Origin: Escherichia coli phage KS_S14
Strand: one strand, 5' to 3'
Sequence record: LC788706.1
DNA length: 64,000 nucleotides
Numbering within the stretch: position 1 is the stretch's first letter; each line of letters opens with the position of its first letter. The notes under the pieces were generated by a model that saw only the letters and a program-made list of their open reading frames with translations, was not told the origin of the DNA and searched no databases. A program made the position numbers and the translations under genes. Of the stretch, positions 3,326-40,764 are shown one piece after another.

Positions 3326-3354
3326 TTGCTTGATGCTTAATTTCTTGTTATAAT
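3326..3354 (+). promoter_or_regulatory. sigma70-type early promoter (TTGCTT-17-TATAAT) driving a non-coding transcript
   Basis: Consensus hexamers followed by ATAAATTGATGAGGAGAG box. Confidence 0.6.
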
Positions 3355-3361
3355 ATTTATA

Positions 3362-3592: not shown

Positions 3593-3671
3593 GGGGAATG
3601 GGTCTGCATGGAGTGGACACCTCGCTTGCACCGAGGACATCAGAACGGTTCGATTCCGTTATTCTCCACCA
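3593..3671 (+). tRNA. tRNA-Ala (anticodon TGC)
   Basis: Acceptor ggggaat/attctcc, anticodon stem cctcg/cgagg with loop ctTGCac, T-arm aacgg-ttcgatt-ccgtt, CCA. Confidence 0.6.
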
Positions 3672-3676
3672 AATAC

Positions 3677-3753
3677 GCGTGATTGATGGAATTGGCATAC
3701 ATACCGTCCTTAGAAGTCGGGTTTTGAGGGTTCGAATCCCTTGTCACGCACCA
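3677..3753 (+). tRNA. tRNA with TAG anticodon (Leu-type) but short variable region, atypical
   Basis: Acceptor gcgtgat/gtcacgc, T-arm gaggg-ttcgaat-ccctt, CCA; anticodon loop ctTAGaa; irregular D region. Confidence 0.45.
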
Positions 3754-3878
3754 AATTTGATGGTCAGAGTAAATTAAACCTACTATCTCGGTTGAGCTGT
3801 TTTAATGGGTTCGAATCCCAGCGAGGCGTAACTGCCTGGTGTGATAGAGGCATCATTCCACTAACATTGGAAAAACTA

Positions 3879-4109
3879 ATGAAACGAAAATTAAAAAAGT
3901 CTTATATAATTAAGATAAATAAGCTACGAAGTAGGGCAAAAGGATGGCCACTTCGAATATTAATTGCGGATAACCATACTAGATACCATGCGGAACAACG
4001 TCATTACAAACAGTGGGAGTCATACTGCCGCTCAAAAGCAGGTCGTTTAGATGGATCTTATGAGTTTCTATTTGGTAAGAAGCCTACTAGAGTAGCTTTA
4101 GGTAATTAG
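3879..4109 (+). CDS. small basic protein (76 aa)
   Basis: In-frame ATG inside ORF-track entry 3741..4109, whose upstream part is tRNA-like sequence; Lys/Arg-rich. Confidence 0.35.
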   Translation: MKRKLKKSYIIKINKLRSRAKGWPLRILIADNHTRYHAEQRHYKQWESYCRSKAGRLDGSYEFLFGKKPTRVALGN

Positions 4110-4114
4110 TACTT

Positions 4115-4205
4115 GGAAGAGCAAATCGAATTGGCGACGAAAACCGCTTGGAAAGTGGCTGACTGGTAAAACGGCTTGAGAGTTCAAATCTCTCCTCTTC
4201 CGCCA
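4115..4205 (+). tRNA. tRNA-Ser (anticodon GGA), class II
   Basis: Acceptor ggaagag/ctcttcc, anticodon loop ttGGAaa, long variable arm, T-arm gagag-ttcaaat-ctctc, CCA. Confidence 0.55.
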
Positions 4206-4217
4206 AACAATTTATAT

Positions 4218-4312
4218 GGTAGGTCAATCCAACGGCTGGCGCTGGACTCCGACTTGAAATCGGTTGATCGTAGTGATACGGTGTAAGGGTTCGATCCCCT
4301 TACCTACCTCCA
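4218..4312 (+). tRNA. tRNA-Ser (anticodon TGA), class II
   Basis: Acceptor ggtaggt/acctacc, anticodon loop ctTGAaa, long variable arm, T-arm aaggg-ttcgatc-ccctt, CCA. Confidence 0.55.
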
Positions 4313-4315
4313 AAT

Positions 4316-4451
4316 CTTGGAATATGCCGGAATTGGTAGACGGGACTGCCGAATAGGTTTACTAGGAACATCCACTCCTAGAAATATACCTTAAAAGCGG
4401 TTGAGTTAAATGGTCTAACTCATGAAGGTTCAAGCCCTTCTATTCCTTGAT
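4316..4451 (+). ncRNA. unresolved tRNA-like element (possibly class II tRNA with insertion)
   Basis: Leu-like D-loop gaattggtagac, hairpins ctagg/cctag and gagtta/taactc, perfect T-arm gaagg-ttcaagc-ccttc, no CCA; cloverleaf not resolved by hand. Confidence 0.3.
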
Positions 4452-4562
4452 ACATCAATGGCTCAAAGTGTAACGGTGCTATTTGATGCTCTTGGAAAGA
4501 CTTTCCCGACATGCGTTCGGGGGTAAGCTTCTGAGGCTAGAATAGAAGAGTTTCTGAGAGCC

Positions 4563-4682
4563 GCCACAATTGAAAATTCGTACTCGTCTTGAGCTGCGTG
4601 CAATAGGAGATAACTTGATTAGTATTCTAGAACATGCTAATTGAGGATGGTTTCGCTAACCCTGCGAGTTTTCAATTGTGGC
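4563..4682 (+). ncRNA. long-range stem structure (14-bp perfect inverted repeat) abutting tRNA-His
   Basis: gccacaattgaaaa at 4563-4576 pairs with ttttcaattgtggc at 4669-4682, enclosing about 90 nt; 3' arm overlaps tRNA-His 5' end. Confidence 0.3.
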
Positions 4683-4754
4683 TATATCATAATTGGTTAA
4701 TGATCCTGATTGTGAATCAGGCCTATGTGGATTCGAATTCCACTAGCCACCCCC
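4678..4754 (+). tRNA. tRNA-His (anticodon GTG)
   Basis: Acceptor gtggcta/tagccac, anticodon stem cctga/tcagg with loop ttGTGaa, T-arm gtgga-ttcgaat-tccac. Confidence 0.65.
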
Positions 4755-4780
4755 AAATTAACTTAAATAGGAAATAAAAT

Positions 4781-4981
4781 ATGGCTGATTTCTGCAAACA
4801 ATGCTCCATTGATATGTGGGGTAGAGATACTGGCGACTTATCTGGTCTGATTACAGAAGCCGAAGTCAAAGAAGGTTATGGTGCAGTTGTGGTTTGCGAA
4901 GGATGCGGAGTCATTCGAGTAGATCATGAAGGTAAGCGCCTTGAAGAACCTGAGCCAACCGCAATGGTTCCTGTAGAGTGA
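4781..4981 (+). CDS. small CxxC protein (zinc-ribbon-like)
   Basis: 66 aa; CKQC and CEGCG motifs; RBS present. Confidence 0.45.
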   Translation: MADFCKQCSIDMWGRDTGDLSGLITEAEVKEGYGAVVVCEGCGVIRVDHEGKRLEEPEPTAMVPVE

Positions 4982-4982
4982 A

Positions 4983-5564
4983 ATGAAATTAGAGAATTTT
5001 AAAGTAATCCCAGAATATCCAGAATACTTAATCTCTCCATATGGAGAGGTTTACTCTACTAAGAGTAATAAACTACTTACACATCATTTAGGCAGTGCAG
5101 GATACCCGTTTGTAACGTTCTATGAACAGGGTAAGAATGTTTCTGTTGTATTGCATAGATTATTGGCTAGAGTATTTAAAGATTTACCTTCGCTAGAATC
5201 TGAACTAGAGGTGGATCACAAAGATAGGAATAAATTGAACTTTACCCTAGATAATCTAGTTGTCATGACCAAGGAAGATCACAGAGTAAAAACTACACTT
5301 GAAAGAGGGCATACAGTAGGTGGTAGTAAATGTCCTTATTGTAATAAACAAATAAATTCTTCATCTAAAACTTGTTTTGATTGTAAACCTAAGAGTAGCC
5401 CTGATATTACAGCAGAGCAAATAGAATATTGGGTAATAAACTATTCATGGGTTAAAGCATCAAAAGAGCTGGGACTATCTGATAATGGTCTACGTAAACG
5501 TTATAAATCCTTAACAGGTAAAGATCCAAAAAGTATTAAGAAGAAGGTTAGCCAAGTCGGTTAA
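4983..5564 (+). CDS. HNH homing endonuclease
   Basis: 193 aa; EVDHKDRNKLNFTLDNL HNH motif and C-terminal CxxC..CxxC; 3' end overlaps tRNA-Gln. Confidence 0.65.
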   Translation: MKLENFKVIPEYPEYLISPYGEVYSTKSNKLLTHHLGSAGYPFVTFYEQGKNVSVVLHRLLARVFKDLPSLESELEVDHKDRNKLNFTLDNLVVMTKEDHRVKTTLERGHTVGGSKCPYCNKQINSSSKTCFDCKPKSSPDITAEQIEYWVINYSWVKASKELGLSDNGLRKRYKSLTGKDPKSIKKKVSQVG

Positions 5565-5617
5565 GGCTGGGGTCTCTGAAATCCTGATCAGTGGTTCGAA
5601 TCCACTACCTTCTGCCA
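5542..5617 (+). tRNA. tRNA-Gln (anticodon CTG)
   Basis: Acceptor agaaggt/accttct, anticodon loop ctCTGaa, T-arm agtgg-ttcgaat-ccact, CCA. Confidence 0.55.
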
Positions 5618-5623
5618 AACAAT

Positions 5624-5701
5624 TGGGGATTAGCTTAGCTTGGCCTAAAGCTTCGGCCTTTGAAGTCGAGATCATTGGTTCAAATCCAATATCCCCTGCC
5701 A
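5624..5701 (+). tRNA. tRNA-Gln (anticodon TTG)
   Basis: Anticodon stem tcggc/gtcga with loop ctTTGaa, T-arm attgg-ttcaaat-ccaat, CCA; 1-72 mismatch. Confidence 0.55.
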
Positions 5702-5708
5702 AATAATC

Positions 5709-5784
5709 GCGGTTAAGCACACGGGTTGTGCCGCAGGCCTTCCAAGCCTCGCTGAGTAGGGTTCGATTCCCTCTAGCCGCTCCA
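5709..5784 (+). tRNA. tRNA-Gly (anticodon TCC)
   Basis: Acceptor gcggtta/tagccgc, D-stem gcac/gtgc, anticodon loop ctTCCaa, CCA. Confidence 0.6.
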
Positions 5785-5800
5785 ACTTTAAGGAAACACT

Positions 5801-6022
5801 ATGCACGTTTTTGAGTTTCGTAATAAGAGTACTGATAAGCGAGTTATCATTATTGGAGAAACATATCGAGCATATGAACAAACTGACGGCTCTGTTATCT
5901 TGAATGATGAGAAAGGAGGTTTTAGCTTTTATCCAGAAGAAACGTATGAAGAATTTCGTACTAAGTTTCTTTTACCAGACTGGCTAGCAGTAGCCGAGCA
6001 ACGAGAATCCGAAGATGGCTGA
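5801..6022 (+). CDS. hypothetical protein
   Basis: 73 aa ORF with AAGGAAA RBS. Confidence 0.5.
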   Translation: MHVFEFRNKSTDKRVIIIGETYRAYEQTDGSVILNDEKGGFSFYPEETYEEFRTKFLLPDWLAVAEQRESEDG

Positions 6023-6179
6023 TAACCTAAAATTAAAGGTTGACAAACAAAAGAAATACGTTGAGATTGAATTAGGCGAAGAACGCTTAAAGCTAACTTT
6101 CGAGTTTCTTCAGCAGTTGGCAATGACAGTAATGTCAGATAAATCCCCTGTATTTGAAAAAGAAATTCCGTTGAAATAA
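6015..6179 (+). CDS. small hypothetical protein (54 aa)
   Basis: ATG overlaps stop of upstream gene; below ORF-track cutoff. Confidence 0.35.
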   Translation: MADNLKLKVDKQKKYVEIELGEERLKLTFEFLQQLAMTVMSDKSPVFEKEIPLK

Positions 6180-6189
6180 CGGGTTTATT

Positions 6190-6264
6190 GCTCCTAAAGC
6201 ATTGCTGGTGATGCAGTTGCCTTGTAAGCATCTGAACCGGGTTCGATTCCTGGTGGGAGCACCA
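6190..6264 (+). tRNA. tRNA-Thr (anticodon TGT)
   Basis: Acceptor gctccta/tgggagc, D-stem gcat/atgc, anticodon loop ctTGTaa, T-arm ccggg-ttcgatt-cctgg, CCA. Confidence 0.6.
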
Positions 6265-6279
6265 AATTTAAAAATTCAT

Positions 6280-6308
6280 TTGCTTTCTCTCTTATTTATT
6301 GCTATAAT
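6280..6308 (+). promoter_or_regulatory. sigma70-type early promoter (TTGCTT-17-TATAAT)
   Basis: Consensus hexamers; downstream ATAAATTAATGAGAGG box then RBS and ATG at 6339. Confidence 0.6.
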
Positions 6309-6338
6309 ATTTATATAAATTAATGAGAGGGAAACCAA

Positions 6339-6629
6339 ATGAAACGTTATCTTTCTGTAGTATTCCAAACTGGTGGCCAAAGGTACACCTATGAATTTCC
6401 ATCTTCTTGGAAAATCAAAGAGGGTGATCAAGTAGTAGTGCTAACACCGCGTGAAGGATATAAAGTAGTAACGGTTAAACAAGTATTTCCAAAAGATCAT
6501 GAACCAGCTAAAGGCATCCGCTATAAGATGATTCATGGTGTGGTTCGTCAAGTACCACGAACTGAGGTAGAAGTAGATAAGGCTGGAGAAACTAAATTCC
6601 ATTATACTTCTTACTTAGACAGTGTGTGA
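6339..6629 (+). CDS. hypothetical protein
   Basis: 96 aa ORF immediately after consensus promoter. Confidence 0.5.
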   Translation: MKRYLSVVFQTGGQRYTYEFPSSWKIKEGDQVVVLTPREGYKVVTVKQVFPKDHEPAKGIRYKMIHGVVRQVPRTEVEVDKAGETKFHYTSYLDSV

Positions 6630-6644
6630 TGTAAATATTTTAAT

Positions 6645-6721
6645 GCTTCGGTAGCTTAGCGATCTAAAGCACTCGGCTGATAACCGAGAGATCGGGGGTT
6701 TAAATCCCTCCCGGAGTACCA
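6645..6721 (+). tRNA. tRNA-Ile (anticodon GAT)
   Basis: Acceptor gcttcgg/ccggagt, anticodon stem ctcgg/ccgag with loop ctGATaa, T-arm ggggg-tttaaat-ccctc, CCA. Confidence 0.65.
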
Positions 6722-6818
6722 AATTTAGGAATTAAGACTATGCGTCCAGGAAAGTTTAAAAAAAGCTAATTGGTCTAAAGAGTATAAAGAATACTTACTT
6801 AGTCTAGTAAAACATAAC

Positions 6819-6894
6819 AGTTAGTTGGCAGAGTGGTTATGCACCTCCTTCATACGGAGCGACTACAGTGGTTCAAATCCACTACTAACTACCA
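6819..6894 (+). tRNA. tRNA with CAT anticodon (Met or Ile2)
   Basis: Acceptor agttagt/actaact, anticodon stem ctcc/ggag with loop ttCATac, T-arm agtgg-ttcaaat-ccact, CCA. Confidence 0.55.
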
Positions 6895-23813: not shown

Positions 23814-24175
23814 ATCTCATAGATTAAAAACATCAACTTGTTTTTACCTCTAGGCCGTAGATTTACATCATTCCTCGTAGGAAAACACTTGATGACGGTT
23901 CTGTTCGCAGGTTCTCGTCAATTGTTCTTCCACACCGAGACTTAGGAGGATGTATCAAATCGCACGCGCCTAGAGGGGCTAACTCTCATGAAATGGGGGT
24001 ATATTAACTTTTAAATAACTGATAAATATTTAAAGGCAATATCTGTGTTCAAGATGATACACTTGTTGCCGCCCATCTGCTAGGATGGCACAACACTTTC
24101 TTCTAGACTCCTAAGTTTTTATGAAAACTCTAGTCAACTCAGGTGGTTTTCATGTTCCTAGAAACTTCAGCAATA

Positions 24176-24213
24176 GGCGGTTTAATACAGGGCGGTTATG
24201 GGGAGGGCGGTTA
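24176..24213. repeat. three direct copies of GGCGGTT(A/T)
   Basis: aggcggttt, gggcggtta, gggcggtta within 38 bp. Confidence 0.5.
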
Positions 24214-24256
24214 TTTCTAGGAGACATTTTTTGAAAACACATTTCCAGAAATTACT

Positions 24257-24856
24257 GTCGGATTTGCACACTGACATAGGTTTAAAAACTGGTCGGATTT
24301 GCACAATCGCCTAAGTTTTTAGGAACTCTTACTCTCCTGAAAATAGCAGCATTATTTCGGGCCGAAGGCCCGTGATTGCCTGAGTTTTTAGGGCCACAGA
24401 AATTTTCACTTGTCAAGCTATTTTGCCCCATTTTGCTAATAAAATTTTACTTTATCTGCACTTACCTCAAATTAACCCAAATCTTCTCAACTCTTCCCCA
24501 AAATCCCCGCAAATCAGGTGCTCCGCACCAAACATGCGCCCCTCTCGCAGTTCCCCCAAGTTTCTCTCGATCTCTCAACTTCTCCCCAAACCCATACAAT
24601 CACACACCATCTAATCGAAGTCACAAAAATCTTGTCGGATTCGCACAAATAAACCCATGTCGGATTTGCACATATTCTAGCTAATTCCACAGGATTCGAA
24701 CGCAGTTCGTGATTGCTGGAGTTTTTAGGAAAATTCATTGTCGGATTTGCACACTATAAAAATTTTTCGGGTCGGATTTGCACACTACCAAAAATTGTCG
24801 GATTCGCACATACACGCCCACGCGTAATCCATGGGGGCAAATGTCGGATTTGCACA
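24257..24856 (+). repeat. iteron-like array: 8 direct copies of GTCGGATT(T/C)GCACA
   Basis: Copies at 24257, 24292, 24634, 24659, 24740, 24771, 24797, 24843, same orientation, irregular spacing; several flanked by AGTTTTTAG motifs. Confidence 0.7.
24470..24600 (+). repeat. C-rich, G-poor strand-asymmetric tract
   Basis: About 130 bp with almost no G on the + strand. Confidence 0.45.
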
Positions 24857-24884
24857 AAAGCGCAGGGCAATTGCCCTGCTCGCC

Positions 24885-25070
24885 TGAATGCGAATGATAA
24901 TGAGAATAATTATCATTTAAGAAGTGGAATGCAAATGATAATTATTCTCATTTACGAAAGGGGGGTGAGAACTATTCAGGAAGTGAAACGATTCTCATTT
25001 AAAAAGTGAAATGATTATCGGTTAGACAGTGGAATGCGAATGATAATGATTCTCATTTAAGAATGGAAGT
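24885..25070. repeat. cluster of about 60-bp direct repeats each containing AATGAGAAT/ATTCTCATT palindromes
   Basis: ggaatgc(g/a)aatgataat three times; attctcattta four times; long AT-rich inverted repeats. Confidence 0.6.
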
Positions 25071-25090
25071 GAGAAACACTGTTATTTAAG

Positions 25091-25172
25091 TTATCAACAG
25101 ACTTATCAACAGCACGATTTGACTTGACAGAATCCTAGCCATTTTGAGGCGTTATTAACAGACTTATCCACA
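25091..25172 (+). promoter_or_regulatory. DnaA-box cluster
   Basis: TTATCAACA at 25091 and 25104; TTATCCACA at 25164. Confidence 0.5.
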
Positions 25173-25182
25173 GCTTATCCTA

Positions 25183-25198
25183 CTGTATATTTATACAG
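25183..25198. promoter_or_regulatory. SOS-box-like palindrome CTGTATATTTATACAG (left copy of inverted repeat)
   Basis: tactgtatatttatacagta resembles LexA consensus CTGT-N8-ACAG; partner at 28927. Confidence 0.4.
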
Positions 25199-25393
25199 TA
25201 TTCCTATGTAGTGAATAATTCTAATATAGGCCTAAAACGTCCTGAATCGCATTCTAACGCGTTTAATTTTGGTGGGGATACTAAAACAAGGGCAAAATTG
25301 GAGGAGGCTTGAAAATTAGTTAGCACGCTAACGATCACACAAGGCGACACGTAACACCCTAATCATTAGCAGGCTAACCATCGCGGGCGCGGT

Positions 25394-25416
25394 CAAATGA
25401 GAATGATTCTCATTTG
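25394..25416. repeat. 23-bp perfect palindrome CAAATGAGAATGATTCTCATTTG
   Basis: Perfect dyad; same core as the 24885-25070 repeats. Confidence 0.55.
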
Positions 25417-25566
25417 AAAATTGGGGGCACTCCCTGATAGTTGCGCCCCTTGATTATTATAGTAGTGGGCAACCGTTACGCTTTGCCCACTCCCCCCACT
25501 CATCTTGATGCCTAGACTTGCGACGGCGTACTAAAAACCGTTTATACCAGTGATTAAACCATCGTT

Positions 25567-25770
25567 TCATAAATCCTCCTCCGGTAGTCGGTGCGTGATC
25601 TTTTCCTCCTCTCCGTAGGAATCGACCAAATGTTGGTAGTAACCATCGTGATCATAAATCACTTTATCATACTCGCCACGCTCGACCGCTTGCCGGTTTT
25701 CCGGCGTATCGGGCACGTAAAAAACATCAACCATTGTACTAATTTTGGTTACAACAATTTTATTGCTCAT
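25567..25770 (-). CDS. hypothetical protein
   Basis: Start moved to second ATG with AGGGG RBS; last gene of minus-strand block. Confidence 0.4.
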   Translation of the reverse strand: MSNKIVVTKISTMVDVFYVPDTPENRQAVERGEYDKVIYDHDGYYQHLVDSYGEEEKITHRLPEEDL

Positions 25771-25870
25771 AATAACCCCTAGTAAATATATTTTTGCCAA
25801 TAGTGGCAAACGTTATCGCCACCAGCGGAATCATTTGCAGCCTCAACATTACCAGCGAAAATATATAATC

Positions 25871-26215
25871 TCATTGCGCCACCTTTCGAAACGCTGTTTC
25901 AATACTATCCGCAGTGGATTGAATATACGCTCCTTTCATTATCAGGCGCTCGGTACATACCTTACGGAAGATATTAATAAAATCATCTTCATTTTCTGCA
26001 ATTAATGCTTCACCCATAACCTGAACGTCGCAAGATGCAAAGGTCAAAAATTGAAACGCTAGTTCACGGGCAACGACCGCATTGATTTTATAATGCGCCT
26101 TGCCCTCATAAATATTAACAACGCCCTTGTAAGCTGGGGAAAGCTGATTTAAGTAATTTGCTAACAATGCAGGACGGCAATTAGCAACAAAACGATTGCC
26201 CTCATAAATAACCAT
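25871..26215 (-). CDS. hypothetical protein
   Basis: 114 aa ORF in minus-strand operon. Confidence 0.45.
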   Translation of the reverse strand: MVIYEGNRFVANCRPALLANYLNQLSPAYKGVVNIYEGKAHYKINAVVARELAFQFLTFASCDVQVMGEALIAENEDDFINIFRKVCTERLIMKGAYIQSTADSIETAFRKVAQ

Positions 26216-26338
26216 TTGACAGCCTCCCGATTAGATAGCCAGATAAAAGCATAAAAATCCCCAATGAAATGGGGTCATTTTTAAATAAGGTGGCGGTAAA
26301 ACCGCCAACCATTGCAAGGATAATAATGGTAACGCTTT

Positions 26339-26551
26339 TCATAGTACCCCACGAAACGCAGCGTAAAAGGTGGCAAAGTATTTAACCGTTTCAGCGATCA
26401 CGTTGCCGCGCTTATCAAATTTTTTCTCAGTAACACGAAAGGCATTTTTGTTACGTGCTACATATTCGATTTTACAATCTTCACGCTCGAACGTGTTAAC
26501 ATCCACCAGCTTAAAGCCTTTCGAACGTGCAAGGGAAACGTTACGAATCAT
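26339..26551 (-). CDS. hypothetical protein
   Basis: 70 aa ORF. Confidence 0.4.
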   Translation of the reverse strand: MIRNVSLARSKGFKLVDVNTFEREDCKIEYVARNKNAFRVTEKKFDKRGNVIAETVKYFATFYAAFRGVL

Positions 26552-26752
26552 TTTTATTCTCCTTTACCAGTCATGCAGCCCAGCAGATAAGAAAAAACGG
26601 CAATGCCAGCGCCGATAATAACAGCGTGAACGCCGAAAGCTATTGCAAATAACGATAAGATAGCGCCCAAGATACCCGCCAGAATAGCTCGAAAAATAAC
26701 CATTTGTAATACTCCCCTAGTTATCGGGGGATATAATATCCCCCGTTATTAA

Positions 26753-27016
26753 TTACATTAAAACAATTTTTGCAGCTTGTTTTTTGGTGCAATGTTCCGC
26801 CTTCAGGGTATCCAGCAAAAAGCCAGCCGTTTGCTGATCGATTTTATCGGCGTTATACAATTCTTGGATGGTGTTATAAGTTTTAGCAATGCCGTATTCT
26901 TGCACCATTTCGTGAATAATAACGCGGTTAGATACCCAGCCTTGAGCGGTGAACAGATGACTAGCAGAAGAATAAGCAACCATTTTAAGCCTCCAAATTT
27001 TTGGGAAAATTTTCAA
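26753..27016 (-). CDS. hypothetical protein
   Basis: 87 aa ORF. Confidence 0.4.
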   Translation of the reverse strand: MKIFPKIWRLKMVAYSSASHLFTAQGWVSNRVIIHEMVQEYGIAKTYNTIQELYNADKIDQQTAGFLLDTLKAEHCTKKQAAKIVLM

Positions 27017-27089
27017 CCGTCCTTAAACGGTGTAAAGGCATTATAACAAAAAAGGCCACCAATTATGGCGACCTTTACAAAACTTTACA

Positions 27090-27584
27090 TTAAACTACTT
27101 GTAATGTTTCAATATTGAAACATCGTTTCAATTCGTCATGCAAAACAGCATATTCCTCCCATCGGGTACTATCAGGAATATAAACAAGCTGTTTTAATCG
27201 GTTTGCATATATTACCGCTTTGTTATCGACTATCTCGACGCCACCATATTTAATAATTAATTTCATGACGGAATTAATAGGATCACCGCCGTTTACATAT
27301 GTGCCGGATTTACTTAGTTGATAATGATAAAGGCTTGCATATACGTTTTCATTCTCATACCATTCACCAGTTTCTTCGTCTTCGTAACCATCGCTACCAA
27401 AACGAGAAGCATTATCAATAGCCATTTCATGAGCGAAAGCGTCCAGATCCGTACCAGCAGGAACAAAATATTCCTCGGTGTTCCCTTCCCCGCAATAGCC
27501 AGTATGACAATCAACTAAAATGATCATATCATGTTTAGCCGTGCTCACTTCCCCTAGTGAGAAGCCGTATTTTTCTTCAGCCAT
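27090..27584 (-). CDS. hypothetical acidic protein
   Basis: 164 aa ORF with GGAGG RBS. Confidence 0.5.
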   Translation of the reverse strand: MAEEKYGFSLGEVSTAKHDMIILVDCHTGYCGEGNTEEYFVPAGTDLDAFAHEMAIDNASRFGSDGYEDEETGEWYENENVYASLYHYQLSKSGTYVNGGDPINSVMKLIIKYGGVEIVDNKAVIYANRLKQLVYIPDSTRWEEYAVLHDELKRCFNIETLQVV

Positions 27585-27649
27585 TAGTTAGCCTCCTATT
27601 AGTTAACAAGGGAATAGTAAAGTGGGGAAACAATCCCCACTAAATATTA

Positions 27650-28660
27650 TTACTCGCTTTCGATGTTAGTGGTGAAAGTAGAAATATCGATACCTTTTAC
27701 CATTTCATCAATCATTTCAGCGATGTTAAAACTTTGCACCATTTCCAGCATTGCCGCTTCCATAGCTGCGCCTGCTACCGCTTTCGCTTTCTGGTTATTC
27801 GGGGCGTACTGGTCAACCGCTACGCTCAGCAGGTTAGCAATAACTACCCGACCAATCGGCGTATCAATATAACCTTTGATCATGAATGGTGCTTTTTTAG
27901 CCGCTACTTTCGTAATTTGAGTTAATGCAATTTTGCCAGCTTCCAGTTTTGCAGCATTTACAACAGCGGATTTATTAGCGGCAACGATATTAGCGATCTT
28001 GGTCATGGTATTATTTCCTTTGTTTTCAGTAGTTTGAGTGTTAACGCTTTGAGTGTTAGAATTTACAGCATGTTTTTCCGTGTTGTCAATAGGCTGATCT
28101 TCCTCCTTCCAGAAAGAAAAGCCCGCGCTTTCAATATCCCCATCATATACATAAGGGTACACTTCCGACGGTAACAAAAAATTACCATCGCCATCAAAAG
28201 CCATTATAGCGGTATATTGAGACCCGTCGTTATCCGGCTTATGCCATCCAGCAGGTAAATACTTCCAGATAACATCTAAAAATCCCTCAATGCTAGAAAG
28301 TCCATTTATCAGATCAAGTCCAATAAGCTCAAAACCATTTATATTAAATGATTGACGGCCTGAATTGCTATGATATGCAACAATATTATTGCCCTGCGCA
28401 ATAATAAAATCGGCATCCGGCCCCGCTCCCCTACCTGTAAAGATATGGCAATCACGGTTATATAAAACAAGCGTTGCCCCTTGCTTATATAGTGGTAGAA
28501 AACTATCTATATCATAAGCGTCATAATCATCAAAAAAGTTTTGATGAATAGTTTCAGCCTTGTTAATAAAATGTTTAATGCTGGTTGACTTGCTACCATC
28601 CAGCAGGTTGCGCAATGCACCTTTTAAGACGGTTGCGTTATCTGGTTTATACAGCCTCAT
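27650..28660 (-). CDS. hypothetical protein (first gene of minus-strand block)
   Basis: 336 aa ORF with GAGGAGG RBS; Ala/Lys-rich C-terminal helical region. Confidence 0.55.
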   Translation of the reverse strand: MRLYKPDNATVLKGALRNLLDGSKSTSIKHFINKAETIHQNFFDDYDAYDIDSFLPLYKQGATLVLYNRDCHIFTGRGAGPDADFIIAQGNNIVAYHSNSGRQSFNINGFELIGLDLINGLSSIEGFLDVIWKYLPAGWHKPDNDGSQYTAIMAFDGDGNFLLPSEVYPYVYDGDIESAGFSFWKEEDQPIDNTEKHAVNSNTQSVNTQTTENKGNNTMTKIANIVAANKSAVVNAAKLEAGKIALTQITKVAAKKAPFMIKGYIDTPIGRVVIANLLSVAVDQYAPNNQKAKAVAGAAMEAAMLEMVQSFNIAEMIDEMVKGIDISTFTTNIESE

Positions 28661-28926
28661 TTGTTCGGCCTCCTCGTTAATCGGTGAGTGAATGATAAAG
28701 GTAATTTTCTAGCATAGGCAAATATTATTTTACCTTTTTATTTTCCTTGCCTAGCGTCTAATTTTATGCTAACCGCGCAGCGGTGTAATAAAGAGCAAAA
28801 CACGGCGAAGCCACCAGGCCGCAGCATTGAGGCTTTACTTTACTATTACCTTGCAGCGTTTAGCTCGTTAGAATGCGATTTAGGCCGCTTAAAATTGATT
28901 GCAGTTGTTAACACTACCTTTTTACC

Positions 28927-28966
28927 CTGTATATTTATACAGTGGAATAACCTGTGGATAAGTCTG
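28927..28966. repeat. right copy of about 40-bp inverted repeat with SOS-box-like palindrome and DnaA box
   Basis: Reverse complement of 28927-28966 matches 25159-25198 at about 34 of 40 positions. Confidence 0.55.
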
Positions 28967-29361
28967 TGCAAAAGTCCTTATATCGCCGCCTATCGTGTCA
29001 AGTTATTTCGTGCTGTGGATAACGTTGTGGATAACCTAAATGATAGTGCTTCTCACTTAGCTAGATGATTTCTTATAGTTATTATTTCTCATTAATTTAT
29101 ATGTATATTATATATCATGAAATAGTTAGTTAGCTAATGAGATTTTTCGTGATTAATAGTCTGCTAATAGTTTACTCGGTTACAGTCCACCAGCATGATT
29201 ATCATCCTAGCAATTATTATCCTGCTATCTTTCCGATGCATACTAACAAATAAAAGTCAATTAATTTATTTCATAAAATAAGTAGTTATCCACTGGAAAA
29301 TAAAAGTCAAGTGGATAACTAGGAAAATTTCATTTTTGCTTTTGGGGATAAGTTATCAACA
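28953..29361. promoter_or_regulatory. DnaA-box cluster in divergent control region
   Basis: TGTGGATAA at 28953, 29024, 29036; TTATCCAC at 29286; GTGGATAAC at 29311; TTATCAACA at 29353. Confidence 0.5.
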
Positions 29362-31339: not shown

Positions 31340-33010
31340 ATGATTATTTCCGCAGAAAAACAAACCGTTATCCTGAAAATGGCCGCTGACTTTAATTTCT
31401 ATGGTAAACGTCTGCGCGCTACTAAACTGGAAGTCTGCGACGATATATCAAAAGCGGTCTACGATACTACTAAACACTCCACCGCTATCTGCGACTGGCT
31501 GGAAGCAAATAAACCAGCTAAACCGAAAGCTGCAAAAGTAGCAAAAGCCATTAAAAACGATGAGCGCCCAGAAGCGGCGGGAATTGTTTCTAGTACGGTT
31601 GAGCAATGGGAAGTAAAACAGGGTAAACGCTTTATTATTACGTCGATTCAGAATAATACTTTCCCGCATAAAAACTTTTTGTCCTCGCTTGAACAATACG
31701 CTAAATATATCGGCGCTGATTTGCTTGTTTCTAAGTATATTTATAATAAAAACGGCTTCCAGAATGGAGAAGGTGCAGACGGTATCAAATACGATCCCGC
31801 ATTTGATAAATATATTTGCAGCAAAAACGTGTTTTTAAATAACCGCCGCTTTGCTTTCATGGCTGAAATTAATGTTTTGCCCACCGCAGATTATCCGCTT
31901 TCAGGATTCGCAGAAACTGCAACGGCTTTAAATATTGAAGGGCTGGCAATTGGTCATGCTAAAATTACCGCCGAAAGCGTGCCAGCTCTCAAAGGTGAGG
32001 TAGTGCGCCGCATGTATTCAACCGGAACGGCGACGTTAAAAAACTATATCCAGCAAAAAGCAGGGCAAAAAGCCGAGGCGCTGCATAACTTCGGCGCGCT
32101 GATTGTTGAGTTCGACGAGGACGGGGAATTTTTTGTTCGCCAGCTTGAAACAATGGATGAAAGCGGGGTGTTTTATGATCTGAACGTTTGCGCTACTCCT
32201 GCCGGATGTTATGAAACATCGGGACATGTTTTAGGCTTGCAATATGGCGACATCCACGCAGAAAAATTAGATGAGGAGTGCGCCGCCGCATCTTGGGGGC
32301 ATGGTGACACCTACGGGCTTGTGGATATTCTTAAACCAAAATATCAATTCGTCCATGACGTGCATGATTTTACATCACGCAACCATCACAACCGCGCATC
32401 CGGTGTATTCCTAGCAAAACAATACGCCGCCGGACGTGATAAGGTATTAGATGATCTTATCGATACGGGGCGCGTATTGGAATCAATGGAGCGCGATTTT
32501 TCTCAAACGATCATCGTAGAATCAAACCATGATTTAGCTTTATCCCGTTGGCTGGATGATCGTAACGCCAACATTAAAGACGACCCTGCAAACGCGGAAC
32601 TATATCACCGCCTGAATGCCGCTATTTACGCCGCAATCGGTGAGCATGATGAAACGTTTAACGTGCTTGATTATGCGCTGCGCAAAGTTGCAGGTTGTGA
32701 GTTTAACGCCATTTTCCTAACGACTGACCAGTCTTTCAAGATTGCAGGCATTGAATGCGGCGTACACGGTCACAATGGCATTAACGGCAGCCGTGGCAAT
32801 CCTAAACAATTTAAGAAATTGGGCAAGTTAAACACGGGGCATACGCATACCGCCAGCATTTACGGCGGTGTATATACCGCTGGCGTGACTGGTAGTCTGG
32901 ACATGGGTTACAACGTTGGCGCGTCTAGCTGGACTCAAACGCATATTATTACCTATGCAAACGGTCAACGCACTTTGATTGACTTTAAGAATGGTAAATT
33001 CTTTGCGTAA
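31340..33010 (+). CDS. A1: A1-like pre-early protein, calcineurin-like metallophosphoesterase (putative nuclease)
   Basis: 556 aa, the size recalled for T5 A1; motifs GDIHAEK, HDVHD, ESNHD, GHNGINGSRGN, GHTHT. Confidence 0.6.
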   Translation: MIISAEKQTVILKMAADFNFYGKRLRATKLEVCDDISKAVYDTTKHSTAICDWLEANKPAKPKAAKVAKAIKNDERPEAAGIVSSTVEQWEVKQGKRFIITSIQNNTFPHKNFLSSLEQYAKYIGADLLVSKYIYNKNGFQNGEGADGIKYDPAFDKYICSKNVFLNNRRFAFMAEINVLPTADYPLSGFAETATALNIEGLAIGHAKITAESVPALKGEVVRRMYSTGTATLKNYIQQKAGQKAEALHNFGALIVEFDEDGEFFVRQLETMDESGVFYDLNVCATPAGCYETSGHVLGLQYGDIHAEKLDEECAAASWGHGDTYGLVDILKPKYQFVHDVHDFTSRNHHNRASGVFLAKQYAAGRDKVLDDLIDTGRVLESMERDFSQTIIVESNHDLALSRWLDDRNANIKDDPANAELYHRLNAAIYAAIGEHDETFNVLDYALRKVAGCEFNAIFLTTDQSFKIAGIECGVHGHNGINGSRGNPKQFKKLGKLNTGHTHTASIYGGVYTAGVTGSLDMGYNVGASSWTQTHIITYANGQRTLIDFKNGKFFA

Positions 33011-33832: not shown

Positions 33833-34567
33833 ATGAATAAAGCTATTATGAATATTTCCCGCAGCTTCCCGCATATTTCCCGCGTCATGATTTGGGATTT
33901 AGACGGCACTATCATTAATTCTTTCCACCGCGTAGCGCCTTGCTTTGATAGCGAGGGCAATTTAGATTTAAATAAGTATAAAAATGAAGCGTGTAAACAT
34001 CATTTAATAATGCAGGATACATTATTACCATTAGTTGAATACATGCGCCAGTGCATGAACGACGCAAATACTTTAAACATTATTTGTACCGCTCGACTAA
34101 TGAGCAAGTCGGACTATTATTATTTGCGTAAACAAGGGTTGCGCGGTCGTGGGGATAGTAATATCCGCGTTTTTTCCCGTGATACACTACACAAATATTT
34201 TGAGGCTGATAAAGTTAGCGAGATATACCACAGTAAGGACGCAGTTTATAAATCTTATTATTTTGAATTATTTAAACAGTTATATCCGAACGCTGATTTT
34301 ACAATGATTGATGATCATAAAGGTGTATTATCAGCGGCGGCATCATACGGATTTAAAACGCTGGACGCGCAAGCCGTTAACGATATTCTATCAATCGGCG
34401 TGGCATTAATAGGTGAAACCTTTATTGATGAATCCCTCGATGATGATAATGATTATCAATTCCTAGCCGACCGTTTAAAATTATGTTGGGAAGGTATGAC
34501 CGAGGAAGAACGCGCAGAATATAGTTGCAGCCCGCAACAATATATTGAGAAATTAAAAGTTGCGTAA
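33833..34567 (+). CDS. dmp: HAD-superfamily 5'-deoxyribonucleotidase (Dmp-like)
   Basis: 244 aa; N-terminal IWDLDGTI (DxDGT HAD motif); size recalled for T5 Dmp. Confidence 0.55.
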   Translation: MNKAIMNISRSFPHISRVMIWDLDGTIINSFHRVAPCFDSEGNLDLNKYKNEACKHHLIMQDTLLPLVEYMRQCMNDANTLNIICTARLMSKSDYYYLRKQGLRGRGDSNIRVFSRDTLHKYFEADKVSEIYHSKDAVYKSYYFELFKQLYPNADFTMIDDHKGVLSAAASYGFKTLDAQAVNDILSIGVALIGETFIDESLDDDNDYQFLADRLKLCWEGMTEEERAEYSCSPQQYIEKLKVA

Positions 34568-34731: not shown

Positions 34732-34977
34732 TTAGCGCATAGAAGGGTCATCAAACCTGTATTCTGGTCTGAACTCACGGAATCTCTTCCGCGACGCCCG
34801 AGATCCATCCGACCACTCCCGCTCAAACTCCGCACGTTTCTCGTCAAACTTCCGCTCCCTTTCCGCAATCTCCCTCGTCACTCCCGCAATATATTTACGA
34901 TGCTTATTGATTGCCGCAGTCGTCCCGAAAACTCCCGCGAGTATCCCGATAATAAAAGCAATTATAATACTAAACAT
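34732..34977 (-). CDS. small membrane protein with charged C-terminal tail
   Basis: 81 aa; N-terminal TM helix; last gene of overlapping minus-strand cluster. Confidence 0.4.
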   Translation of the reverse strand: MFSIIIAFIIGILAGVFGTTAAINKHRKYIAGVTREIAERERKFDEKRAEFEREWSDGSRASRKRFREFRPEYRFDDPSMR

Positions 34978-35164
34978 CTAATTCCCTCTCAATTTGCAGA
35001 ATACGAGTGCTATCACAACGTTGCAGTAGTACTAGCTTTTCTAGAATAACTTGTTGTTGTTTCACTTGGGCTTCTAGAGTTTTTAGGCGGAGATACACGA
35101 CACGAGAGACAATAAGGATTACCCAGACTAATATTACTATTAGTGTAACTGCCACTTCCATCAT
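34970..35164 (-). CDS. small membrane protein with coiled-coil tail
   Basis: 64 aa; start overlaps upstream stop. Confidence 0.35.
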   Translation of the reverse strand: MMEVAVTLIVILVWVILIVSRVVYLRLKTLEAQVKQQQVILEKLVLLQRCDSTRILQIERELDV

Positions 35165-35267
35165 TTACGTTTCTCCGACAGTAGGGTTTCAATTCTAGCT
35201 AAGTGATTATCTAAAATACATTGACCAATAATCACAACCCCCAGTAGTGCAATAATTACCCATTCCA
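35160..35267 (-). CDS. very small membrane protein (35 aa)
   Basis: ATG overlapping stop of upstream ORF; hydrophobic; hand-found. Confidence 0.25.
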
Positions 35268-35395
35268 TTATATCCACCCCGCCATAGCTGCTAACCAAAA
35301 ACCTACGAAAATAAAGAATAGGATAGTTCCGAACCCAAAACTATTTATCCAACTCTCATACACCTCTCCGCGTCTATTCTTTCTTTTGTTTGACA
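35267..35395 (-). CDS. small membrane protein (42 aa)
   Basis: ATG with AGGAG RBS; basic N-terminus then hydrophobic helix; hand-found. Confidence 0.3.
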
Positions 35396-35572
35396 TATCT
35401 TTCATGCTCCTATAAGTGTGGTATTTGAAATATTCTATAACTTGTGCACAACCAACCGTGCCTATGAACTCCTAGAAGGACTTCTACTTTTCTTATATAG
35501 TGTTTTCTGCCAGTATACCGTCCAAGAAATAAAAAATTTAGTTTACTTGGATGTCTTTTTGTTTTATACTAA

Positions 35573-35839
35573 TTACAGGTAATTAGATTGCTCTAGTTTA
35601 AATTTACAATCACCGTATTTAAGGTCAAACTGACTGAGATCCCACCACCCAAACTTAGTACGGAGCTGTACTACTGGAAAGCGATCTCCCTTAATACGAA
35701 CTTTTTGAACCTTGAGGCCGTAATGTTCCTCTCCCGCACCACCAAAAGATTTTACAAATCCCATACAAAATGGTTTGGGGGCAGGTGCACAACCAGATAA
35801 CATAACTGTGGCAACTAGTGCAATCACAAACTTTTTCAT
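35573..35839 (-). CDS. lipoprotein, Llp-like (possible receptor-blocking lytic-conversion protein)
   Basis: 88 aa; signal peptide with lipobox LSGC; divergent from receptor-binding-protein candidate. Confidence 0.45.
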   Translation of the reverse strand: MKKFVIALVATVMLSGCAPAPKPFCMGFVKSFGGAGEEHYGLKVQKVRIKGDRFPVVQLRTKFGWWDLSQFDLKYGDCKFKLEQSNYL

Positions 35840-35924
35840 ATTTATCTCTCCATTTCTAATTTATGAATCTATTATAGCAAAATAGAGAGATGAAAGCAAA
35901 TACATTTTTATAATAGGAGATTAT

Positions 35925-37682
35925 ATGGGTTTTTTCGCTGGAAAGTATAGCGATGGTAAGACCGTACTATCTTTAAATACTGAATCTGGTGGTGACATTA
36001 ATCGTCACTATAGTCCAAGTAATAATAGTATTTTTCATAGTGATATGCCATTTGTTCTAGTTGATGGTACTTATGAGGCAGGATTAGGTGATGCCGGGAA
36101 TGGGTTTTTCGTATGTCAGATGCCTCCTGATATAGTAAATATTAAATCTAATGATCCTGGTAGAGTTATACTAACTGCTATTGAGATTAATGGTACTCAC
36201 AGAGCTTTTCTTAATGGTACTCAGAGTAAAGTTGGTCAAACTATAGTTGCCACTCAAGCAGACCCCTTTAGATCTTTTGCTAGTGTTTCTCAAACCAGTG
36301 GATTTGCATTTGGTAATAGTCTAGCATCTGGAACTTATAATTATAACCCATCGATAGGGCACGAAGAATCTATTTCTAGGAGTGGTACAGGTGGTACTAC
36401 GTTACATAGTACCTACCATGGGATAGTTAGGCCTGGTGCGGGAGCTCCTGTAGGTGTTACTGTTGCAGAAGCCTTTGCACAGTTAGGTTTTCCTACTAAT
36501 AGTAGCACAGTACCTGTAGATGGGAATAACCCGTATTATTGGGATCCTGGATGGATGTCGCCTCTAGGAGCAGCACATAGAGGGCATGATTGGTTTTATG
36601 TTTGCAACTCTAATATACGTGGATACGGTGGGGTTAGACAAGGGCTCCCAGGTAATGTAAATACTATGTACCACGACGGTGGGAACAGATTTGTTTGTAG
36701 GGGATCTACTACTAATTTAGCTAACCAGTCGGGTGACTCTACAATACTACAGGATTGGTATAATATAACCCCTACTAAGGTTATTTGGTATGTTCTTAAT
36801 TTAAGGTACTCTAATGGTGGAATGAGTATTTCAGGCAACCCCTTTACTGGTTCTGATATTCTTATATCTCCTTCTAATTTCATAATTAAAGGGGTAAGTC
36901 TCCCTAATACCGGGTATAAATTTATAAATCAGAATGCTTTTGGTAACCTAGGTTACCGTCCTGATATGGAGTATATAGGAAATAACGCAGCGTATACCGG
37001 GGTTTTTGGGGATACCACGGCAAGGTGTGAACTTGTAGGGTCTAGTAATGGAGGATTATGGTCTCCTGTAGACTATGGTGGAGCTAAATCCCAAATTAGC
37101 ATTTACAAATTCGGAGCTGGTAAGCAATGGTATGTAAACTCTAGGGATAATACTATCGGTAATGAACACGGGGTTGTTTGGGGACCATCAGCAGTTCCAT
37201 TACGACTTTTTGGTGGAAATGTAGGTAGCTCTTACATGGGGGATGATATTACTCCCAGCTACCCGGGAACAGGGGATAGATACGTTGGTTTATCAACTAT
37301 TGGGCTAGGTATACCGGGTGGCAATGCTACAGTAATTCTTACCACTGAAGTTATATCAGGTAACCTTAACTGTGCAGGTGTTCCTGCTAATACATGGAAT
37401 AACGGTGTGTTTCAAGTGCAAGGAAGAAGAGCATATAGCTATAGTAATGGAGATGCAATATTCCACCAGATTTTAACATTACCAGTAGGGTATTTAGTAC
37501 CTTTTCATACTACATCTGCTTTTAGATACACACCTAACAATGCCCTAAGTAGAAATAGTTTTATATACACTGCTAAAAATCTGGGGAATGGAAATGTAGA
37601 GTTAGGGGTAGTTATGCACGTAAGTTTAGGTAGTGCAGTTTTCCTACCGAGATTAAGAGTAACAGTTCAACGCCTTACCTAA
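35925..37682 (+). CDS. receptor-binding tail protein candidate (pb5/Oad-like)
   Basis: 585 aa; Gly/Asn/Ser-rich; adjacent to lipoprotein and terminal-repeat-like region; N-terminus MGFFAGK resembles recalled pb5 start. Confidence 0.45.
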
Positions 37683-37692: not shown

Positions 37693-38175
37693 ATGGCAAA
37701 TGATGTATTAGTACCAGATCTTATGTCCCCTGAAGGGATGGATGTAATTGAAGCATATTTACAGTGTGGCAGCGATGTGCCTTCTGCCGCACGTAGTCTT
37801 GGGATGTCCGAAATTGCTTTTCGAGATATTATGAATCGTAGTGAAGTTAAGAACTACTTAAATGATATTTTTATGGAGAGTGGTTTCCGTAACAGAGATC
37901 GTTTATTTGGTGTTCTGGATGAAGTTATCAAGCGTAAACTAGAGGAACTAGAAGAAACTGGCATGGGTTCTGACCAAGATATTATGGATATTCTCTGGAA
38001 AGCACATAAAATGAAAATGGAAGAAATGAAAATGATGGTAGAACTGGAGAAAGTGAAGGCAGCAGCCCGTACTCCAGCTAACCAGACCAACATCCAGAAT
38101 AATATTATTGCTGGAGCTGGGGATCAAAACTACATGGACTTAATTACTTCCCTAGCTACTGGAGGTAAGAAGTAA
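37693..38175 (+). CDS. terminase small subunit candidate
   Basis: 160 aa directly upstream of large terminase; HTH-like N-terminus. Confidence 0.5.
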
Positions 38176-39491
38176 TGGAAGTATCAAGACCTTACGTTAA
38201 TACAGTAGATGTTATTGATTTCGGAATAGATAAACGTTTCTTTCGTCTACCTGTTTCGGGAATACTAGCACAAGAAGGTATTACACCTAATGGTCCTCAA
38301 ATAGCGATTATTAATGCTCTAGAGGATCCTAGACATCGTTTTGTAACGGCGTGTGTATCACGCCGTGTAGGTAAATCCTTCATCGCATATACTCTTGGGT
38401 TCCTAAAATTGCTGGAACCTAATGTGAAGGTGTTAGTAGTTGCTCCTAACTATTCACTGGCCAACATCGGATGGTCTCAGATTCGTGGTCTTATTAAAAA
38501 ATATGGCCTACAAACTGAACGTGAGAACGCTAAAGATAAGGAAATTGAGTTAGCTAATGGTTCTCTGTTTAAACTAGCTTCCGCTGCTCAGGCTGACTCC
38601 GCAGTTGGACGTTCATATGATTTTATCATCTTTGACGAGGCGGCAATTTCCGATGTGGGTGGTGATGCCTTCAGGGTTCAGCTGCGTCCTACTCTAGATA
38701 AACCTAATTCTAAGGCTCTATTTATTTCCACACCTCGTGGAGGTAACTGGTTTAAAGAGTTTTACGCCTACGGATTTGATGATACGTTGCCTAACTGGGT
38801 ATCTATTCATGGTACATATCGTGATAACCCTCGTGCTGACCTGAATGATATAGAAGAAGCACGTCGTACGGTTAGTAAAAACTACTTCCGCCAGGAATAT
38901 GAAGCTGACTTCTCTGTATTTGAAGGTCAGATTTTTGATACTTTCAATGCTATTGACCATGTTAAAGACCTTAAGGGTATGCGTCATTTCTTTAAAGATG
39001 ATGAAGCATTCGAAACGTTGCTTGGTATCGACGTTGGTTATCGTGATCCTACAGCAGTTCTTACTATTAAGTATCATTACGATACGGATACTTACTATGT
39101 ATTAGAAGAGTATCAGCAGGCGGAGAAAACTACAGCTCAGCATGCTGCTTACATTCAGCACTGTATAGATCGTTATAAAGTTGATCGTATTTTTGTTGAC
39201 TCCGCGGCAGCTCAGTTCCGTCAAGACTTAGCTTATGAGCATGAAATTGCATCAGCTCCAGCTAAAAAATCTGTCCTAGATGGCCTAGCATGCCTGCAAG
39301 CACTGTTCCAACAGGGTAAGATTATTGTAGATGCCTCATGCTCCTCCTTAATTCATGCACTGCAGAACTATAAGTGGGACTTCCAAGAAGGTGAAGAGAA
39401 ATTATCACGTGAAAAACCACGTCATGATGCTAATTCTCACCTTTGTGATGCGCTGCGCTATGGAATTTACTCTATTTCCCGTGGTAAATAA
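38175..39491 (+). CDS. terminase large subunit
   Basis: 438 aa; Walker A-like RRVGKS, Walker B-like DFIIFDEAA, C-terminal nuclease-like region. Confidence 0.75.
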   Translation: MEVSRPYVNTVDVIDFGIDKRFFRLPVSGILAQEGITPNGPQIAIINALEDPRHRFVTACVSRRVGKSFIAYTLGFLKLLEPNVKVLVVAPNYSLANIGWSQIRGLIKKYGLQTERENAKDKEIELANGSLFKLASAAQADSAVGRSYDFIIFDEAAISDVGGDAFRVQLRPTLDKPNSKALFISTPRGGNWFKEFYAYGFDDTLPNWVSIHGTYRDNPRADLNDIEEARRTVSKNYFRQEYEADFSVFEGQIFDTFNAIDHVKDLKGMRHFFKDDEAFETLLGIDVGYRDPTAVLTIKYHYDTDTYYVLEEYQQAEKTTAQHAAYIQHCIDRYKVDRIFVDSAAAQFRQDLAYEHEIASAPAKKSVLDGLACLQALFQQGKIIVDASCSSLIHALQNYKWDFQEGEEKLSREKPRHDANSHLCDALRYGIYSISRGK

Positions 39492-39662: not shown

Positions 39663-40337
39663 ATGGGTCGACAAAAGCTAACAATAAAAGATATAAATAT
39701 TAGATTAGCTGATCGTGGAATCCAAATTGTCGGTGAGTATGTAAACCAACGTACAAAAACAGTATTTAAATGCCAGAGAGCACATGTTTGGGAAGCAACA
39801 CCACATTCTATACTCCATATGGGGAGAGGTTGTCCACACTGCTCCAATAATACAATATCGTTAGATGAAGTTAATAACAGAATATCTAATATAGGGTATA
39901 CTCTGTTAAGCAGCTATACTAATGCTAAAACAAAACTACATCTACGCTGCAATAATGGTCATGACTGTTTAATTACCTTAGATGGATTGACTCAAGGTAA
40001 GAGATGTCCTTATTGTTCTCTTAAGTGGGAGAATGGCGGATTCCTCTATATCATGTCCTCCTCTAGTGGTACTAAAGTAGGCATAAGCTTATACCCTGAG
40101 AAACGGCTGAATGAAGTTAAAAGAGAATCTGGATTTTCTGACCTATACTTGTTCACCATGTATCATCTGCCAGATAGAGAGACTGCTTTAGATTTAGAAA
40201 AGGAAGTTCACAGAGAATATTATAATAAAAACTGTGGGTTTTCTAATTTTACAGGAAGCACGGAATTTTTTAATGTTGCTCCTGAGGATATAGTAATCTT
40301 TCTAAGTAGCTTTGGATTGGAGGATTATGGCCACTAA
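39663..40337 (+). CDS. zinc-ribbon plus T5orf172/GIY-YIG-like homing-endonuclease-like protein
   Basis: 224 aa; two GxGCPxC ribbon repeats and C-terminal GGFLYIM...KVGIS...EFF block; sits between terminase and portal. Confidence 0.5.
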   Translation: MGRQKLTIKDINIRLADRGIQIVGEYVNQRTKTVFKCQRAHVWEATPHSILHMGRGCPHCSNNTISLDEVNNRISNIGYTLLSSYTNAKTKLHLRCNNGHDCLITLDGLTQGKRCPYCSLKWENGGFLYIMSSSSGTKVGISLYPEKRLNEVKRESGFSDLYLFTMYHLPDRETALDLEKEVHREYYNKNCGFSNFTGSTEFFNVAPEDIVIFLSSFGLEDYGH

Positions 40338-40764
40338 TACTAAGTACAAACGTGATGCCATTTCCATAATGAGGGATGGTATAAAATCTAGGTATAGTAA
40401 GGATGGTTGCTGTGCTATATGTGGTAGTAGTGAAGACCTAGAACTTCACCATTATCATACTATATCTCAGCTAATAAAAAAATTTGCTAAAGAACTCCAG
40501 CTGGATTTCACTGATGAGAATATCGTCCTTTCAAATAGGGAAGCATTCTACAAGAAATATGAGCATGAGTTAGTTAGGGACGTGGTAACATTGTGCCAGC
40601 ACCATCACCAATTATTACATAAGGTTTACACAAAAGAACCTCCTTTATTTTCTGCTAATAAGCAAAAAGCGTGGGTTCAAAAGCAGAAAGACAAATTACA
40701 GAATCCTCAAGAAAAGACACAAGTCAAGACTGAAACAAAATCAGGATTCGCAAGGTTCTTATAA
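40312..40764 (+). CDS. HNH endonuclease
   Basis: 150 aa; CCAICGSSEDLELHHYH and CQHHHQLLH motifs. Confidence 0.6.
   Translation: MDWRIMATNTKYKRDAISIMRDGIKSRYSKDGCCAICGSSEDLELHHYHTISQLIKKFAKELQLDFTDENIVLSNREAFYKKYEHELVRDVVTLCQHHHQLLHKVYTKEPPLFSANKQKAWVQKQKDKLQNPQEKTQVKTETKSGFARFL

Follow-up and report, generated by a model that had tools for sequence, protein, structure and literature searches.

Organization of the locus

The window analysed here is a 64,000-nt stretch of the genome of Escherichia coli phage KS_S14 (LC788706.1), assigned to Tequintavirus (T5-like phages). The locus under study (35573-37682) contains two divergent genes, one for an 88-aa lipoprotein (llp) and one for a 585-aa candidate receptor-binding protein (RBP). 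These genes and their surroundings are arranged as follows:

31340-33010: pre-early gene A1, a terminal-repeat gene to the left of llp
33833-34567: pre-early gene dmp, a terminal-repeat gene to the left of llp
34691: equivalent of the inner boundary of the BF23 right terminal repeat (rTR feature of DQ097178.1, mapped by alignment)
34732-35405, minus strand: four ORFs for small single-pass membrane proteins, between llp and the terminal repeat
35573-35839, minus strand: llp, an 88-aa ORF from the ORF list, beginning MKKFVIALVATVMLSGC
35789-35839, minus strand: signal peptide and lipobox L14-S15-G16-C17 of Llp (Pfam LPAM_1)
35840-35924: intergenic region between the divergent llp and RBP genes (85 bp), also the left breakpoint of the RBP cassette
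35871-35899, minus strand: llp promoter, with -35 hexamer TTGCTT (35899-35894), a 17-nt spacer and TGc-TATAAT with its -10 hexamer at 35876-35871
35925-37682, plus strand: RBP gene, a 585-aa ORF from the ORF list (PHROG 4815)
37693-38175, plus strand: terS, small terminase subunit (PHROG 3802, E 6.5e-91), also the right breakpoint of the RBP cassette
38175-39491, plus strand: terL, large terminase subunit (Pfam Terminase_6N and Terminase_6C)

The original prediction, made from the letters of the DNA, had described a lipoprotein with the lipobox LSGC, a divergent Gly/Asn-rich 585-aa protein just upstream of terminase, and a nearby terminal repeat. All of these elements were recovered. The 88-aa ORF matches Pfam LPAM_1 with a score above the cut-off (24 versus 20 bits, E 4.7e-5), the 585-aa ORF is followed by terS and terL, and its product contains 13.8 % Gly and 8.7 % Asn, compared to 7.1 and 5.6 % in three neighbouring proteins. 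The repeat occupies the lower window coordinates from 34691, and its boundary lies ~0.9 kb beyond the llp stop codon. Both ORFs are real genes rather than chance ORFs, since they match PHROG 4815 and PHROG 1119 and have homologues in 540 (RBP) and 399 (Llp) phage records.

A megablast search with the locus matched 281 phage records, nearly all of them T5-like phages of Escherichia and Salmonella (Demerecviridae, Tequintavirus and Epseptimavirus), in which the two products are usually annotated as 'receptor-binding tail protein' and 'receptor-blocking protein / Cor superinfection exclusion protein'. Identity reached 98.7 % for the two top matches, vB_Eco_mar004NP2 and Salmonella phage SPLA5b. 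According to the ORF map, the gene order at the locus is the same in T5, BF23, DT571/2, SPLA5b and phiR2-01.

The four ORFs downstream of llp encode ~35-81 aa with hydrophobic N-termini in their translations and are co-oriented with llp. They are the equivalents of T5.159-T5.162 and of BF23 Orf1-4, and are syntenic in T5, BF23, DT571/2 and SPLA5b, where the annotations say no more than membrane protein or hypothetical protein. One of them gave a weak, sub-threshold match to LapA_dom.

The terminal-repeat genes A1 and dmp occur only once in the window, between the tRNA/early region and the llp-rbp-terminase late region. As the window runs across this one copy straight from the early to the late part, it seems that the source assembly is permuted or that its two terminal repeats were collapsed into one. 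A stretch of ~5 kb (24001-29000) has negative GC skew in a window of otherwise positive skew, which suggests a minus-strand gene block inside or beside the terminal repeat. The early part holds a cluster of 14 tRNA genes typical of T5-like phages (398-6894, plus strand: Cys, Asn, Asp, Pro, Met x2, Lys, Ala, Leu, His, Gln x2, Thr, Ile). On the late side, terL is separated from the portal gene by two ORFs (39663-40337 and 40312-40764, both plus strand). The 224-aa ORF of this interval, with T5orf172/MUG113 (GIY-YIG-like), CapR and zinc-ribbon domains, looks like a homing endonuclease insert; the ORF present at this site in mar004NP2 is shorter (172 aa). The 150-aa ORF has Cys/His motifs discernible by eye and no Pfam match.

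The receptor-binding protein

The 585-aa protein matches the whole profile of PHROG 4815, 'receptor binding tail protein', with an E value of 2.3e-273. In a phmmer search it matched the T5 pb5 chains 8b14_B and 8a8c_B (E 1.4e-49) in two stretches, residues 1-112 and 270-531, and BLASTP aligned it to pb5 over residues 1-585 at 29.8 % identity. Since PHROG 4815 is matched end to end and the pb5 structures 8B14 and 8A8C at E 1e-49, the RBP is a full-length homologue of T5 pb5 and one of the pb5/Oad/Hrs tail-tip proteins of Markadamsvirinae. Identity to pb5 is lowest (18-31 %) at query residues 91-270, and the pb5 loop tips Gln115 and Phe170 probably fall within this stretch. In T5, monomeric pb5 sits at the end of the central fibre (pb4), and its binding to the receptor triggers DNA ejection (PMC9586334).

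The original prediction had compared the pair to the llp-oad arrangement of T5, and this comparison holds: a full-length pb5 homologue stands next to a divergent lipoprotein gene, upstream of the terminase genes, a position described as invariable for the RBP gene (PMC8594841). It had also named alignment with pb5 and with the RBPs of BF23 and DT57C as a check, and a match to a protein without a role in receptor binding as the result that would speak against it. The alignment runs instead along the full length of T5 pb5, and the identities obtained were 29.8 % to pb5, 66.4 % to BF23 Hrs and 73.5 % to the RBP of DT571/2. Further values were ~69 % for EPS7, 55 % for phiR2-01 and 28-31 % for T5, S131, S124 and Gostya9. 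The RBP is identical to those of SPLA5b and mar004NP2 at 584 of 585 residues, the sole difference being D47E.

The RBP homologues from 540 phage records divide into 104 at ≥90 % identity, 293 at 60-80 % and 143 below 60 %; approximately 100 records carry the RBP allele at 95 % identity or more. Of the ranked rows that were sampled, phiR2-01 (55 %) is the sole one between the group at 66-74 % and the group at 24-31 %, to which T5, S131, S124, Gostya9 and the Klebsiella phages belong; below it, the identities show a gap from 55 to 31 %. The RBP thus clusters with the BtuB binders BF23, DT57C, EPS7 and phiR2-01, apart from the FhuA and FepA classes. In the BASEL study the RBPs of the subfamily formed three clusters, for BtuB, FepA and FhuA; the cluster predicted the receptor, and BtuB was the target of the vast majority (PMC8594841).

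Several of the closest relatives have been studied experimentally. For SPLA5b, btuB was identified by TraDIS as a susceptibility gene, and the phage formed no plaques on a clean btuB deletion mutant of S. Typhimurium ST4/74 (PMC10949491). A requirement for BtuB was shown for DT57C and DT571/2, and BF23 is the classical phage of this receptor (PMC4728585); phiR2-01 is described as BtuB-dependent in PMC8624392. Because SPLA5b, with the same allele except for one residue, as well as DT57C, DT571/2, BF23 and phiR2-01 are all BtuB-dependent, BtuB was assigned as the putative terminal receptor of KS_S14, on the strength of near-identical proteins in the literature. The expectation of a receptor different from that of T5 was therefore well founded, given the 584/585 identity to the BtuB-requiring SPLA5b and the clustering with BtuB binders. 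The 585-aa length, which had been offered as the clue to this specificity, was of more limited use: BtuB-class RBPs have 585-595 aa compared to 640 aa for pb5, but length is only a loose indicator.

A T5-type module, in which FhuA would be bound by the RBP and blocked by the lipoprotein, would agree with the T5-like gene order and divergent arrangement, with the homology of the RBP to pb5, and with the match of the lipoprotein to the 'Cor' PHROG, whose founding members block FhuA. However, the identity to pb5 is low, particularly at residues 91-270, the RBP is nearly identical to that of a btuB-dependent phage, and the lipoprotein found no T5 Llp in a PDB sequence search while being 98 % identical to the BtuB-blocking Llp of BF23/DT57C. 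We regard this explanation as extremely improbable.

It is only slightly more credible, and still highly unlikely, that the RBP uses another or an additional TonB-dependent transporter (FepA or one not yet named), so that its 26-34 % divergence would represent a receptor switch and not drift. The divergence from the BF23 and DT57C proteins is concentrated in residues 91-270 and 451-495, the first ~200 residues of the RBP are believed to be involved in receptor recognition (PMC4728585), and the authors of the SIA3lw study speculate on an alternative receptor on S. Infantis. Against a switch, the failure of SPLA5b to plaque on the btuB deletion mutant concerns the very same allele, the identity to S124, a proposed FepA-class RBP, is only ~28 %, and the cognate Llp is essentially that of BF23/DT57C, which a switch would leave mismatched.

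The receptor-blocking lipoprotein

The predicted acylated first residue of the mature lipoprotein is Cys17, which gives a mature protein of 72 aa from the 88-aa precursor. Llp matches PHROG 1119, 'Cor superinfection exclusion protein', across the entire 78-position profile (E 4.7e-25). It is identical to BF23 Llp at 86 of 88 positions (97.7 %), to the Llp of DT57C/DT571-2 at 87 of 88 (98.9 %), and fully (100 %) to an unannotated ORF of phage pork27. In an alignment of 12 relatives, G16, C17, C25 and C78 were invariant. Residue 26, directly after the conserved Cys25 (35762-35764, minus strand), is Met in KS_S14, and Thr or Lys in BF23, DT571/2, SPLA5b, mar004NP2, HildyBeyeler and all 11 cluster representatives.

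The divergent lipoprotein carries the annotation receptor-blocking protein in many phages, BF23 and DT571/2 among them. Leak-level expression of the cloned DT57C llp reduced the plating efficiency of DT57C-type phages and BF23 more than 100-fold (PMC4728585), and BF23 Llp is cited there as blocking BtuB and preventing superinfection (Mondigler et al. 2006). By its near identity to these proteins, the lipoprotein of KS_S14 is a predicted receptor-blocking (superinfection exclusion) lipoprotein of the BF23 type, and PHROG 1119 places it, by profile similarity, within the Cor/Llp small superinfection-exclusion lipoproteins.

The relation to T5 Llp is more distant. T5 Llp also matches PHROG 1119 (E 1.1e-19), and the cysteines of the mature proteins are found at equivalent positions, 1/9/62 in KS_S14 and 1/11/58 in T5, where cysteines 11 and 58 form a disulfide which ties the termini together (PMC9586334). 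A phmmer search of the PDB with the KS_S14 protein did not find 8a60_B or 7qjf_A at E ≤ 1, whereas T5 Llp as query found both. The BLASTP and hhalign matches between the two lipoproteins are carried by the signal peptide, the hhalign match covering residues 1-29 only. The original view of the lipoprotein as a T5-like Llp holds as regards the shared PHROG, but the protein is of the BF23 type, and outside the signal peptide it does not resemble T5 Llp in pairwise comparison. A place among the FhuA-blocking lytic conversion lipoproteins (T5 Llp sensu stricto) was considered separately and is not supported, as the mature proteins lack pairwise similarity.

Promoter and mosaic structure

The llp promoter was located by aligning the regulatory features of the BF23 record (DQ097178.1) with the window, in which both hexamers are conserved. 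It was missed by a generic promoter scan, as only 3 of the 6 positions of the -35 hexamer match.

The llp gene and the intergenic region are 96-100 % identical to both BF23 and DT571/2, compared to only ~40-85 % in the RBP gene. Along the DNA, identity to these two phages is 96-98 % up to ~35900, then collapses within the RBP gene, and identity to DT571/2 is back at 93-97 % from 37700, in terS. A nearly invariant llp beside a divergent RBP cassette is the mosaic pattern already described by Golomidova et al., who placed a recombination point between hrs and llp (PMC4728585). As ~180 records carry this Llp at 95 % identity or above and ~100 carry the RBP allele at that level, a single Llp thus serves several divergent RBP alleles. 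This would be expected if the target of Llp were a conserved face of BtuB and not an epitope of the RBP.

Discussion

The locus is most probably the BtuB-specific version of the T5-like module for host recognition and superinfection exclusion, a reading to which we give a probability of about 93 %. The homology and the synteny come from the present analysis, while BtuB dependence and exclusion by Llp are taken from the literature on proteins that differ by 1-2 residues.

According to this reading the 585-aa RBP, presumably monomeric, would sit at the end of the central tail fibre and would bind BtuB, the vitamin B12 transporter in the outer membrane of E. coli and Salmonella, irreversibly, committing the phage to DNA ejection. 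Llp would be expressed from its own sigma-70-type promoter, processed by signal peptidase II and acylated at Cys17, which would anchor it on the periplasmic side of the outer membrane. In this position it would inactivate BtuB, so that infected cells, and later their debris, would no longer adsorb KS_S14 or other BtuB-dependent T5-like phages. Inactivation could proceed through binding of Llp to the periplasmic face and plug of BtuB, with reverse allostery closing the extracellular loops needed by the RBP. This mode of action is modelled on the T5 structures, in which Llp binds the plug of FhuA from the periplasm and the extracellular loops are folded over the RBP site (PMC9586334); by this analogy we consider it somewhat more plausible than not for BtuB. 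The mosaic pattern fits such an action on the BtuB plug.

It is also conceivable, though rather less probable, that the module consists of a BtuB-binding RBP with an Llp that acts differently from T5 Llp, by occlusion at the cell surface or by interference with BtuB assembly or levels. The similarity to T5 Llp is limited to the signal peptide region and the fold similarity to it (8A60 chain B, 7QJF) is marginal, the PDB sequence search returned no BtuB-Llp structure, and an older in vitro study, as cited in PMC9586334, put T5 Llp outside the cell.

The closest known systems are those of SPLA5b (OR413584.1) and mar004NP2 (LR027384.1), with the same order llp (minus), rbp (plus), terS, terL. Their Llp differs at 4 of 88 positions (M13I, A18V, M26T, H39Y), and the rest of the window is only ~95 % identical to their genomes, compared to 98.7 % for the DNA of the locus. 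The hrs-llp module of BF23 (DQ097178.1; Mondigler, Ayoub and Heller 2006) shares the Llp, the llp promoter, the intergenic region, the receptor BtuB, the four small downstream ORFs and the position abutting the right terminal repeat, but its Hrs has 595 aa and the DNA identity in the RBP gene is 40-80 %. The rbp-llp module of DT57C and DT571/2 (KM979355; Golomidova et al. 2016) shares a function-tested Llp and the breakpoint between llp and rbp. Its BtuB-dependent RBP of 586 aa is a distinct allele, however, with 58-64 % identity at residues 181-270, 361-405 and 451-495. The oad (pb5)-llp module of T5 (NC_005859; PDB 8A8C, 8B14, 8A60, 7QJF) is similar in architecture, in genomic position, in combining an RBP with a divergent receptor-blocking lipoprotein, in full-length homology of the RBPs and in the PHROG and Cys pattern of the lipoproteins. 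It differs in its receptor FhuA, in the length and sequence of pb5, and in its Llp, a 77-aa precursor that, outside the signal peptide, is not significantly similar in pairwise comparison.

The module, like its function and its mosaic evolution, is already known from work published in 2006-2016, and there is nothing new at the locus. The genome itself is a mosaic, and no deposited record is the same phage. For window positions 1-25000 the best match was phage Baret, with only 94.9 % identity over 94 % coverage. As these first 25 kb match no record at better than ~95 %, KS_S14 is a distinct mosaic isolate carrying a known allele of the recognition locus.

We also considered, as a speculative and rather unlikely extension, that the 585-aa allele contacts different extracellular loops of BtuB than the BF23 and DT57C alleles do, with a different host spectrum across the BtuB variants of E. 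coli and Salmonella, while the near-invariant Llp still neutralises all of them through the conserved periplasmic plug. If this were true, the locus would be a natural test of whether one exclusion protein can cover many RBP alleles by reverse allostery on BtuB.

Naming BtuB as the terminal receptor of KS_S14 has routine annotation value only. The assignment predicts that the main route of host resistance would be loss of btuB, and that there would be cross-resistance with other BtuB phages and E colicins, as well as cross-exclusion by Llp. Such predictions of receptor and resistance are useful for the design of phage cocktails.
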